Of a stretch of 64,000 nucleotides of DNA, positions 49,891 through 53,719 are shown piece by piece. The first letter of the stretch is position 1. Each line of letters begins with the position of its first letter. The position numbers and the translations under genes were made by a program. The DNA comes from Escherichia coli (GTDB lineage Bacteria; Pseudomonadota; Gammaproteobacteria; Enterobacterales; Enterobacteriaceae): NCBI RefSeq assembly GCF_051903065.1, contig NZ_CP178438.1; one strand, 5' to 3'. A model generated the notes under the pieces. The model was not told the DNA's origin, did not search any database, and worked only from the letters and a program-made list of their open reading frames with translations.

Positions 49891-50784
49891 ATGAATGGAA
49901 AATTGCAAAGTTCAGATGTAAAAAACGAAACTCCGTACAATATTCCCTTATTGATTAACGAAAATGTGATCTCCAGCGGAATTTCTCTGATCTCGCTCTG
50001 GCATACCTACGCCGACGAGCATTACCGGGTGATCTGGCCGCGGGACAAGAAGAAACCGCTTATCGCCAACTCATGGGTTGCGGTGTATACCGTACAAGGA
50101 TGTGGGAAAATTCTTTTAAAGAATGGCGAACAAATAACACTGCATGGCAACTGTATTATATTTTTAAAGCCAATGGATATTCACTCTTATCACTGTGAAG
50201 GTTTAGTCTGGGAACAGTACTGGATGGAATTTACCCCCACCAGTATGATGGATATTCCCGTTGGTCAGCAAAGCGTTATTTATAATGGCGAAATTTATAA
50301 TCAGGAACTCACCGAAGTTGCTGAGTTAATAACTTCACCAGAAGCAATAAAAAATAATCTGGCAGTCGCTTTTCTGACGAAAATTATTTATCAGTGGATT
50401 TGTCTTATGTACGCAGACGGTAAAAAAGATCCACAACGGCGGCAAATTGAAAAATTAATTGCCACTTTACATGCCAGTCTGCAACAACGCTGGAGCGTAG
50501 CCGATATGGCTGCCACGATCCCCTGTAGCGAAGCCTGGTTGCGTCGTCTGTTTTTACGCTATACCGGAAAGACGCCGAAAGAATATTACCTCGATGCGCG
50601 TCTGGATCTGGCGCTATCGCTATTAAAGCAACAAGGAAACTCGGTTGGCGAAGTCGCTGATACGCTCAACTTCTTCGACTCCTTTCATTTCAGCAAAGCC
50701 TTTAAACATAAATTTGGTTATGCGCCTTCAGCCGTGCTAAAGAATACGGACCAGCACCCAACGGATGCCAGTCCACACAATTAA
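49891..50784 (+). CDS. yidL: AraC-family transcriptional regulator YidL
   Basis: 297 aa from [26 protein letters not shown]...; C-terminal AraC HTH; ORF-track GTG at 49861 is an extension. Confidence 0.88.
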
Positions 50785-52103
50785 CGTAACTCTGGCCAGT
50801 ACGCTTTGTTGGCCTCCAGCAACTCATCCAGAATAGCTTTGGCGACCGAGGCGCTCGGTACCGTTTTCGACAACGTAATCGCCTGCCACAGGTGCTGATA
50901 TGAACGCTGTTCCCAGGCGTCCACGACCAGTTTTTCCACCGCCACTTGCTGACTCATTAACCCTTTCTGAAACTGCGGGATATCGCCGACCACCAGTGGT
51001 TCTGGTCCGTTGTGCCCGACCAGACACGGGATCTCGACCATCGCTTCATCATCAAAGTTATGGATTGCCCCGTTGTTAGGCACAATCAGCAACATCCGCT
51101 CCTGAGTGTTGAAGGCAATTGCCGCCGCCAGATCGACGATGTATGACGCATGTTCGTCAATCTCCAGCTTGCCCGCCGCTGAATTTCCTGCCGCTGTAAT
51201 AGCGCGGCAAGCATCGAAAACCTGTTTCTCGCGATGTTCCATCACCTCATTCGCGCGGGTATGTTCAGGGTTGGAATGCTGAACAACATAATCCGGGAAG
51301 AGATAATATTTCAGATAGGTGTTTGGTAATGTATCCGGGTCCAGTGCCTGGACATCCCGCGCTTTTGCATAGGTGTCGTTCCAGCTCGCTTCAGTATGCG
51401 TATCTTGCTGCGGTGGAACATAACCGTGCTTCGAGACATATTGCCGCAGCTGGGGCATCAGGTCGTTGCCCTGCAAATCTTCAATTGATGTCCACCAGCC
51501 AAAGTGGTTCAGGCCGTAGTAGCGCACGCGCATCTGTTTGCGATCTTGCAGCCCAACAATTTGCGCCATCCGGCTTTCAATACCGATTGGCATGTCACAG
51601 ATGTTGAGGATTTTCGCATTCGGGCGCAGACGACGCGTGGCTTCTGCAACAATTGCTGCCGGGTTGGAGTAGTTGAGCATCCAGGCATTTGGTGAATATT
51701 TTTCCATATAATCCACCAGTTCCAGGACGCCGCCAATGGAACGCATGCCGTACGCTATTCCGCCGGGTCCGCAAGTTTCCTGACCAACAACGCCGTGGCG
51801 CAGCGGGATTTTTTCATCCAGTTCGCGCATCGGGTATTTGCCGACGCGGATGTGCGCCATGACAAAATCAACGTCGCTAAATGCCACTTCAGGATCGGTG
51901 GTGTAACTAAACGCAATATCCGGCGCTTTTTCTTTAAGAATGACTTTACAGGCTTCGGCAATCACTTCCTGCCGCGCACCATCGTTATCATAAAATTTCA
52001 GTGCACGAAGCGGGAAACGGTCCTGATTCGCCAGGAGCATCAACACGATGCCTGGCGTAAAGGTGCTTCCACCGCCTGCGACAACCACTGAGAATTTGGT
52101 CAT
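50781..52103 (-). CDS. glvG: 6-phospho-alpha-glucosidase (GH4 family), intact 440 aa
   Basis: [47 protein letters not shown]... NAD-binding GH4 fold; uninterrupted. Confidence 0.88.
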
Positions 52104-53719
52104 TATACTGCCTCCGTAATGGCAACATTTTCTGCTGATTGATGAGAATTAATTAAGCTATCGAGCTGTTCACGCAGCTGGGATACATGCAGACCAATGA
52201 TCACCTGAATGGCATCGCCACTACGGAAGACGCCGTGCGCTCCCAGCTTTTTAAAGACTTCGTCATCCAGCGTTTGTGACATGTCATGCAGTGCAATACG
52301 TAGACGCGTCGCGCAATTGTTAATGCTGGAGATATTGCCGACCCCGCCCAGGGCTTGCAGGATACCGGCAGCCTGATCCAGCTCTTTTTTTGGCTCTGCA
52401 GCGATGGTTTGGCCTCGCGAGGCTTTGTATTCGGCTTTTGAGTAGAGTTTCACTTCCGCATCTTCACGTCCCGGCGTACACATGTTGAACTGCAGTATCA
52501 GGGTGCGGAAAACCACGAAGTACAGCAGGGTAAAGCACAACCCAATGGCGATTTGGGTCAGCATCATATCCGCGTGGTTGCTAAACATCGGGATCCAGTT
52601 TTGCGGTAAAACCTGGTCAATCAGACCTCCGCCCATGTTGCCCACCACACCAAAGAGATACATCACGGTCGACATTGAGGCCGCCAGCACGGCGTGTACC
52701 GCAAACAGCAACGGTGAAATGAACAGGAAGGTAAATTCCAGCGGTTCGGTAATTCCCACCAGCATGGCGGTTAAGGTTGCGGGGATCAGCAAGCCCGCCA
52801 CTTTTACCCGATTTTCCGGTGCGGCAGTGAAGTACATCGCTAAAGAAATGCCCACGGCACCAAAGATTTTTGAGTTACCGTGCAGGGCAAAACCGCCTTC
52901 CGGGAACAATGATTTCAGCGGCTCGGCGCTCAAACTGAACTCTTGCAGATGCTGCGCCCAGTACATCTGAATGCCGCCTTCAACAGCTGCCGGACCAAAG
53001 ATAAACGGTCCGTAGATGAAGTGGTGTAAACCGGTTGGGATCAGAATACGTTCGAGGAAGGTGTAAACCCACACCCCAAGCGCACCCGCCGAACGCAGGA
53101 ACGCTTGCAGAGATTCAATCCCCATTTGTACTTTTGGCCAGCCGAGCAATGTCAGCCAGGCACAGGGGATCATCACCAGGAAGGCGATAATCACCACATA
53201 AGACGTCCCCTGGAAAATGCCGAGAAACACCGGCAGTTTTTTATCGAACAGACGGTTATGCAGCGCCGTCACAATGCCGGAAATGATAATTGCGCCGATA
53301 ATGCTGGTATCGAGGGTTTTAATCCCGGCCATCATTGTCAGACCGCTACCTGCCACCGCGTCCTGAGTGAAATCGACGCCGAAGTAACTTCCCCAGGTCA
53401 TTCCCATCGCATTGATGAAATAGTTCCAGGTCAGGAAACTCACCATCACCGCCAGACAAGCACGCCCCTGCGCTTGCTTAGCAAGGCCAATGGGTAAACC
53501 GACAGCAAAAATCAGCGGCATATTACGGAATACCGTCCAACCGCCCTCTTCAATAATGTGTACGATTTGCGCGAATAAACTGTTCGGATCGGTCAGTGAT
53601 TCCCCGACAAACATCGGGTTTTGCAACAAGATGGCAAGACCCACCACAATCCCGGCGAAGGGAAACAGCAGCACTGGCGTGAACATCGCGCCGCCAAAGC
53701 GTTGAATTTGACTGAGCAT
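52103..53719 (-). CDS. glvC: PTS alpha-glucoside-specific EIICB component (fused IIC-IIB), 538 aa
   Basis: From [37 protein letters not shown]... to a C-terminal IIB-like domain (...[18 protein letters not shown]...); upstream ORF-track extension rejected. Confidence 0.88.

Follow-up and report, generated by a model that had tools for sequence, protein, structure and literature searches.

In a 64,000-nucleotide stretch of an Escherichia coli chromosome (assembly GCF_051903065.1, contig NZ_CP178438.1; hereafter the window, to which all positions refer), we analyzed a two-gene operon, known in K-12 as glvC-glvB-glvG. The first gene codes for a fused EIIC-EIIB transporter (EIICB) assigned to the alpha-glucoside-specific phosphotransferase system (PTS). 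The second codes for a family GH4 glycoside hydrolase, a predicted 6-phospho-alpha-glucosidase. The genes of the locus stand in the order yidJ-yidK-yidL-[GH4-EIICB]-yidP-yidE-ibpB on the chromosome. Our main finding is that the operon is undamaged here, while the K-12 copy carries two lesions.

Both operon genes are uninterrupted in the window

A first-pass annotation of this DNA had described a 538-residue EIICB and a 440-residue GH4 protein, both uninterrupted and overlapping at stop and start; coordinates, lengths and overlap were all correct when compared with the list of open reading frames (ORFs). The EIICB frame is open over 52103..53980 on the minus strand. Within it, an in-frame internal ATG at 53719, with AAGAGGA just before it, gives the 538-residue protein. 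The TAA stop of EIICB and the ATG of the GH4 gene have one base in common (TAATG; GTATAATGACC). Between 50500 and 54000 the window does not differ from E. coli ECNB21-M121 (100% identity), an independent complete genome, in which the Prokaryotic Genome Annotation Pipeline (PGAP) calls both genes intact and names them '6-phospho-alpha-glucosidase' (WP_000160112.1) and 'PTS sugar transporter subunit IIB' (WP_001626304.1).

Looking for hidden frameshifts or inactivating missense changes in the window operon, we found none. At columns that are invariant among the orthologs of other genera, the GH4 protein shows no departure in 307 positions, EIICB none in 270 and YidP none in 146, and thus there is no sign of concealed missense damage. 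Among intact alleles, the two operon genes show synonymous to nonsynonymous codon differences of 15:2 and 17:1 when compared with O157, and of 20:1 and 12:3 when compared with E. coli B. The O157:H7 strain 86-24 carries yidL, GH4, EIICB and yidP all intact.

Table 1. Positions of genes, allele differences and candidate control sites at the operon locus
Feature	Position	Strand	Remarks
yidL, AraC-family regulator	49891..50784	+	convergent with the GH4 gene; 4-bp overlap at the 3′ end of GH4
GH4 6-phospho-alpha-glucosidase gene	50781..52103	-	440 aa, uninterrupted; ORF list, Pfam, PGAP
Segment deleted in K-12-type alleles	51003..51510		508 bp, GH4 codons 198-367; alignment and junctions
Alpha-glucoside-specific PTS EIICB gene	52103..53719	-	538 aa, uninterrupted; TIGR02005, Pfam
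EIICB codon 369	52613..52615	-	CAG (Gln) in the window, TAG (amber) in K-12
EIICB ribosome-binding site AGAGGA	53727..53732	-	GAGGAT kept in 29/29 intergenic regions
Candidate -10 hexamer TATCCT	53787..53792	-	TATnnT 48.5 nt downstream of the CRP-like centre in 29/29 regions
Candidate CRP site CATGAAAGCGATCACG	53833..53848	-	CATGA-N6-TCAC in 29/29 regions, block nearly invariant
Candidate YidP operator, 34-bp near-perfect palindrome	53865..53898		GTCTA-N16-TAGAT; inverted repeat I1, 88% complementary
yidP, GntR/HutC-family regulator	54015..54731	+	divergent from the operon; winged helix-turn-helix PF00392 and UTRA PF07702

The encoded proteins group with alpha-glucoside transporters and 6-phospho-alpha-glucosidases

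The GH4 protein matches two Pfam models at full length, PF02056 (Glyco_hydro_4, 223.6 bits) and PF11975 (Glyco_hydro_4C, 190.1 bits). It aligns without gaps to the Klebsiella pneumoniae 6-phospho-alpha-glucosidase 6DUX (89.5% identity, 917.5 bits) and to Bacillus subtilis GlvA 1U8X (73.0% identity, 750.5 bits), whereas its best match among 6-phospho-beta-glucosidases, 1S6Y, reaches 212 bits. The protein keeps GGGS at residues 10-13, C169-D170 within CDMP 169-172, H200 and Y263. In the ungapped 1U8X alignment, with an offset of 2, the residues C169, D170, H200 and Y263 correspond to C171, D172, H202 and Y265 of GlvA. In GlvA, C171 and H202 are Mn2+ ligands, D172 and Y265 are catalytic and GxGS binds NAD+. 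Structures solved at 73-90% identity suffice here for questions of fold and active site. We take CDMP to be a signature of the phospho-alpha-glucosidases and not of the beta-type enzymes; a literature search for the motif found no paper with that term.

In the EIICB protein, Pfam finds PTS_EIIC at residues 10-346 and PTS_EIIB at 453-482, and no EIIA domain. The model TIGR02005, 'alpha-glucoside-specific PTS IIBC', matches residues 2-523 over model positions 1-524 with 957.6 bits, against a cut-off of 607.3. The GITEP motif lies at residue 322, and the phosphorylatable cysteine of EIIB, within CATRLR, at residue 469. The orthologs in K. pneumoniae ATCC 13883 are 81% (EIICB) and 90% (GH4) identical. 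Pfam, TIGR02005 and the closeness to 6-phospho-alpha-glucosidase structures thus support the identity as an alpha-glucoside PTS operon that had been claimed from the DNA.

The K-12 copy carries an amber codon and a 508-bp deletion

The first-pass annotation had stated that K-12 glvG is a pseudogene and that the transporter is split into glvC and glvB. This was right, as the K-12 genome annotation holds an 815-bp 'frameshifted' remnant (glvG) and a 1,617-bp coding sequence with an 'internal stop', both marked as pseudogenes. A direct alignment of the window with K-12 over 3.2 kb shows 27 substitutions and one gap (about 99% nucleotide identity). It locates the lesions at EIICB codon 369 and in a 508-bp deletion, and the K-12 ORFs are not intact. 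The amber codon leaves glvC with 368 residues, and glvB restarts at Met378. Since the amber sits between GITEP and the CATRLR cysteine, the last membrane segment and the B domain are cut off from the rest of the transporter. The K-12 transporter additionally has P238Q and I439T, neither of which occurs in the window.

The 508-bp deletion is out of frame. An 8-bp direct repeat, AGTGGTTC, at 50995-51002 and 51503-51510 bounds the deleted segment, and it is the signature expected of a microhomology-mediated deletion. The window is free of the K-12-type pseudogenised state, as it keeps CAG at codon 369 and retains 51003-51510.

The split transporter of K-12 has probably also left a trace in the annotation of the intact protein. 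In EIICB, the match to NF007255, an NCBIfam equivalog of 161 positions (PRK09702, 'PTS sugar transporter subunit IIB'), runs exactly from residue 378 to residue 538, and these residues are the GlvB fragment that the amber mutation produces in K-12. This model of a pseudogene fragment probably spreads the misleading 'subunit IIB' name for the 538-residue EIICB in thousands of genomes.

The intact form, the deletion and the amber codon differ in their distribution among E. coli genomes

We surveyed 5,426 complete E. coli genomes. The window region 50500-54000 is covered to at least 80% in 4,264 of them. The 508-bp segment is present in 1,652 (30%), including O157:H7, derivatives of E. coli B and SMS-3-5. 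By subtraction, about 2,615 genomes (48%) carry the K-12-type 508-bp deletion, and about 1,150 (21%, B2-type) lack the operon together with yidP. The last group fits the report that glvC is among the functions missing from phylogroup B2 (Touchon et al. 2009; PMC2617782). In a pan-genome study, 6-phospho-alpha-glucosidase is among the accessory genes that are enriched in some isolates (PMC6968650).

Codon 369 was typed with allele-specific 55-mers, whose placement forced each 28-base megablast seed to cross the single-nucleotide polymorphism (SNP). The TAG allele was found in 348 genomes, essentially all K-12 or laboratory derivatives, and the CAG allele in 3,925. The amber is therefore a recent mutation of the K-12 lineage. 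The 508-bp deletion is widespread and independent of the amber.

The operon is inherited at a conserved site and was lost by several routes

A degenerate DNA pattern for an 11-residue peptide, searched in one genome per species, gave 62 loci, all of them in Enterobacteriaceae. Using the window proteins as tblastn queries, we find the order ibpA-ibpB-yidE-yidP followed by divergent EIICB-GH4 in many genera, among them Klebsiella, Raoultella, Kluyvera, Enterobacter, Citrobacter, Kosakonia, Pseudenterobacter and Superficieibacter; yidL-yidK-yidJ comes after GH4 in only a subset of genera. In E. albertii, the last 105 GH4 residues, the part covered by the compared stretch, are 99% identical to the window, and the gene adjoins a yidL remnant. 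From this conserved order across the Enterobacteriaceae we conclude that the operon was vertically inherited at the site and that the intact form is ancestral. The ancestral state had been proposed from the window itself; the ungapped alignments to Klebsiella AglB and B. subtilis GlvA, the shared gene order including E. albertii and a yidP remnant in genomes without the operon all agree with it.

In those operon-less genomes (for example BH100), the region from window position 50752 to about 54650 is replaced by about 30 bp. The B2-type genomes of this kind retain about 70 bp of the 3′ end of yidP and a truncated yidL. Because the yidP remnant is retained, the absence of the operon is a deletion of about 3.9 kb. 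An insertion of the operon into non-B2 E. coli was considered and is ruled out by the 70-bp remnant, the truncated yidL and the synteny in other genera.

The history of the 508-bp deletion is less simple. Among the eight sequences compared, its junction is the same in K-12, 2013C-3250, BMH-17-0027 and MSB1_9I, on at least three flanking haplotypes, and the SNPs that distinguish the haplotypes start 144-180 bp from the junction. All 2,423 flanking positions compared are the same in the deleted MSB1_9I and the intact ETEC1722. Such a pattern would fit either repeated loss of the segment at the 8-bp repeat or one deletion that short recombination tracts then spread. In the sampled deletion carriers other than K-12 (L070, L071 and L072), EIICB and yidP are intact in 3/3, and their EIICB genes show synonymous to nonsynonymous differences of 16:2, 18:2 and 11:1. 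We estimate that some 2,270 genomes (2,615 less the 348 with amber) appear to have intact EIICB and yidP without the hydrolase. That loss of the hydrolase was recurrent and selected while the transporter was kept is a speculative idea, and we think it improbable. On this idea the mostly synonymous differences in the EIICB genes of deletion carriers would be a signature of purifying selection. If true, it would imply a role of EIICB apart from the hydrolase, in transport or sensing of another sugar or in PTS regulation, and would make the microhomology site a deletion hot spot.

A different lesion is seen in strain 1332KP (locus L007, 3530-4849), where GH4 residues 1-283 are fused to the C-terminus of TnpB and the product is annotated as 'TnpB family protein'. 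This chimera is a further, independent inactivation of the hydrolase, under a misleading product name. In some strains an IS200/IS605-family element replaces yidJ-yidK-yidL (ETEC1722, locus L004, 2297-4077). Elsewhere in the family the operon is multiplied: Kluyvera georgiana (L043), Kluyvera genomosp. 3 (L054) and Superficieibacter (L026/L027) carry two regulator-EIICB-GH4 modules, in tandem or nearby, and the second GntR regulator has only 56-61% identity to YidP. This suggests a duplicated alpha-glucoside system that may have diverged in specificity or inducer.

Conserved elements lie between yidP and EIICB

We aligned 29 orthologous intergenic regions from about a dozen genera. Of the 10 core positions of the CRP consensus, the candidate CRP site (Table 1) shares 7, the key G and C among them. 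Given the fixed spacing to TATnnT, the CRP-like centre would lie at about -60.5 to -61.5 from the putative transcription start, which is predicted about 7 nt downstream of 53787. The arrangement GTC(T/C)A-N16-TAGAC occurs in 26 of the 29 regions, always 41 nt upstream of the CRP-like centre. These elements are most simply read as a CRP-dependent promoter of class I, together with an operator for YidP that is centred near -100.

A terminator scan of the intergenic region gave nothing, with no excess over shuffled sequence. An Rfam scan of the whole 64-kb window placed no RNA element at the operon locus. Its hits above the gathering threshold lie elsewhere, namely the small RNA (sRNA) istR at 42725-42854, tRNA-Sec at 23252-23342, the ROSE_2 thermoregulator upstream of ibpA at 57533-57605 and the sRNA ES036 (CssrF) at 62985-63027; all four are expected for this region of E. 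coli.

YidP goes with the operon and yidL with yidK-yidJ

The first-pass annotation had listed two regulators with the operon, the divergent yidP and the adjacent yidL, and only the first of them is likely to be an operon regulator. YidP is the divergent neighbour of EIICB in all 22 loci with enough flanking sequence, and yidP is lost jointly with the operon in B2-type genomes. YidP is thus likely to be the cognate repressor of the operon. In E. coli B C3029 the operon genes are intact, but yidP (locus L006, 6513-7150) has lost 79 bp and is marked as frameshifted in the annotation. Should YidP be the repressor, strains of the B/BL21 type may express the operon constitutively.

By contrast with yidP, the yidL gene follows GH4 in just 9 of 36 loci; in these, wherever the flank reaches, the next gene is yidK (and yidJ). 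It is kept in the operon-less B2-type genomes and is lost with yidJ-yidK in ETEC1722, which retains the operon. From this double dissociation, yidL probably belongs with the symporter and sulfatase genes of the divergent yidK-yidJ module rather than with the alpha-glucoside operon; on its co-occurrence with yidK-yidJ, we consider it improbable as a second operon regulator. The longest yidL ORF starts at GTG 49861 (307 aa), and PGAP places the start at ATG 49891 (297 aa). In K-12, yidL is repressed by H-NS and activated by BglJ-RcsB, and its mapped transcription start is the GTG at window position 49861 (PMC3950696). As that GTG is the transcription start, ATG 49891 is the real start codon.

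Discussion

Taking the above observations together, we consider it very probable that the locus is an undamaged, vertically inherited enterobacterial alpha-glucoside operon, orthologous to aglA-aglB of Klebsiella and malP(glvC)-glvA of B. subtilis. By analogy with the characterised orthologs, EIICB would take up alpha-linked glucosides and phosphorylate their glucosyl moiety at O-6. The expected substrates are methyl-alpha-glucoside, isomaltose, maltitol, maltose and the five sucrose isomers. As the operon itself encodes no EIIA, we propose that phosphate passes from phosphoenolpyruvate through EI and HPr to the general EIIA-Glc (Crr) and then to EIICB, with dependence on Crr as a prediction of this route. 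The NAD+/Mn2+-dependent GH4 enzyme would then split the 6-phospho-alpha-glucoside into glucose-6-phosphate and the aglycone. Conserved non-coding sequence suggests a weak promoter whose activity would require a class-I-like CRP site, and the divergent YidP may control the operon through the conserved inverted repeat about 100 bp upstream.

Several observations weigh against such a functional pathway. No NCBIfam model for 6-phospho-alpha-glucosidase passes its cut-off with the GH4 protein, the best being an alpha-galactosidase subfamily (179 bits vs 486), and the enzyme name is therefore founded on identity to characterised proteins. About 70% of the E. coli genomes have lost the hydrolase; the operon is therefore dispensable and may be poorly expressed. 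A scan of 53720-54014 found no consensus sigma-70 promoter, with sites no more frequent than in shuffled sequence, so that our promoter model draws on cross-genus conservation only. The right half-site of the operator is TAGAT in the window vs the TAGAC conserved in other genera. In addition, the E. coli 5′-untranslated region (5′-UTR; 53720-53790) departs from columns that are conserved in other genera, Citrobacter included: the leader reads ...CAGGCTTCC-TACTTACAGAATTGAG... vs the cross-genus consensus AAGGCCWCT-CCCCTACnnGTTGTT, which Citrobacter retains (in a comparison that includes L021). Finally, expression of the operon in vivo is something that we infer, as intact frames alone do not establish it.

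These points raise the question of whether the frames are intact but the operon is cryptic, silent under ordinary conditions like bgl, asc and chb, so that growth would need an activating mutation. Taken together, the diverged 5′-UTR, a core promoter that is weak and a hydrolase that is often lost keep this reading open. The missing consensus promoter and the altered operator half-site fit it, and so does the variety of routes by which the hydrolase was lost (the 508-bp deletion, the B2-type 3.9-kb deletion and the IS605 chimera). The adjoining yidL promoter is H-NS-repressed in K-12 (PMC3950696), and the K-12 copies are termed 'cryptic or nonfunctional' in the literature (PMC5309279). However, the codon ratios among intact alleles (15:2, 17:1, 20:1 and 12:3) indicate strong purifying selection; the CRP-like site, the -10 hexamer and the ribosome-binding site are fully conserved in E. 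coli; and a need for CRP and inducer would equally account for a weak core promoter. We therefore hold a cryptic operon to be a serious contender but unlikely.

A second alternative is a specificity for beta-glucosides or arbutin, which older annotations of glvC give; the entry of Touchon et al. 2009, for example, reads 'Arbutin specific PTS permease' (PMC2617782). The sequence comparisons leave this very little room. EIICB scores 957.6 bits with TIGR02005 vs 44.8 bits with the beta-glucoside model TIGR01995, and the hydrolase reaches 917 bits with a 6-phospho-alpha-glucosidase structure vs 212 bits with the best 6-phospho-beta-glucosidase. The hydrolase also has CDMP in place of a beta-type motif, if that motif is diagnostic. 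That the intactness is an artefact of assembly error or concealed missense damage has a negligible chance, as nothing was found in its favour and it is opposed by the 100% identity to an independent complete genome, by the same intact architecture annotated in O157:H7 86-24, E. coli B and ETEC1722, and by the absence of departures at 307, 270 and 146 invariant columns.

The undamaged operon thus remains our preferred reading, although the finding as such is already known: both genes have names in the PGAP annotation, and published work describes the K-12 copies as cryptic or truncated. The intact form is real but ordinary, and it matters little beyond bookkeeping. K-12 is unrepresentative at this locus, and about 30% of E. 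coli have the genes for a complete alpha-glucoside PTS pathway, O157:H7 and the B/BL21 lineage among them. The pathway could permit the use of isomaltose, maltitol and palatinose, as well as of related sweeteners or by-products of starch, which would be of modest relevance to gut ecology, diagnostic sugar panels and industrial fermentation on starch hydrolysates. For the last purpose, K-12 has been engineered with the Bacillus genes (PMC5309279).

Comparison with known systems

One close relative is the K-12 glvC-glvB-glvG itself, which has the same chromosomal locus and flanking genes; the K-12 copy is cryptic and pseudogenised, whereas the window copy is intact. The aglA/aglB system of K. 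pneumoniae has the same two-gene order and domain content, and the EIIA domain is missing from both systems. They also share the yidE-yidP flank and conserved intergenic motifs, and structures of AglB are available (6DUX, 6DVV). The two differ in that the Klebsiella system was tested experimentally and the E. coli copy is known from sequence, and in the diverged 5′-UTR and operator half-site of E. coli. The Klebsiella system was reportedly tested on sucrose isomers, maltitol, isomaltose and methyl-alpha-glucoside (PMC5309279, PMC12728616). The same papers and a further one describe the pathways of the Klebsiella and Bacillus orthologs as alpha-glucoside uptake and phosphorylation followed by NAD+/Mn2+-dependent hydrolysis, with isomaltose, maltitol, maltose-6′-phosphate and sucrose isomers as reported substrates (PMC5309279, PMC12728616, PMC3458588).

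The glvA (malA)/glvC (malP) pair of B. subtilis follows the same logic, a PTS EIICB paired with a GH4 phospho-alpha-glucosidase (PMC5309279, PMC3458588). It differs from the E. coli locus in gene order and genomic context. Its regulator is presumably the RpiR-type GlvR, in place of the GntR/HutC-type YidP found here. On every sequence-level criterion tested, the window locus is a member of the AglA/AglB and GlvC/GlvA pathways.

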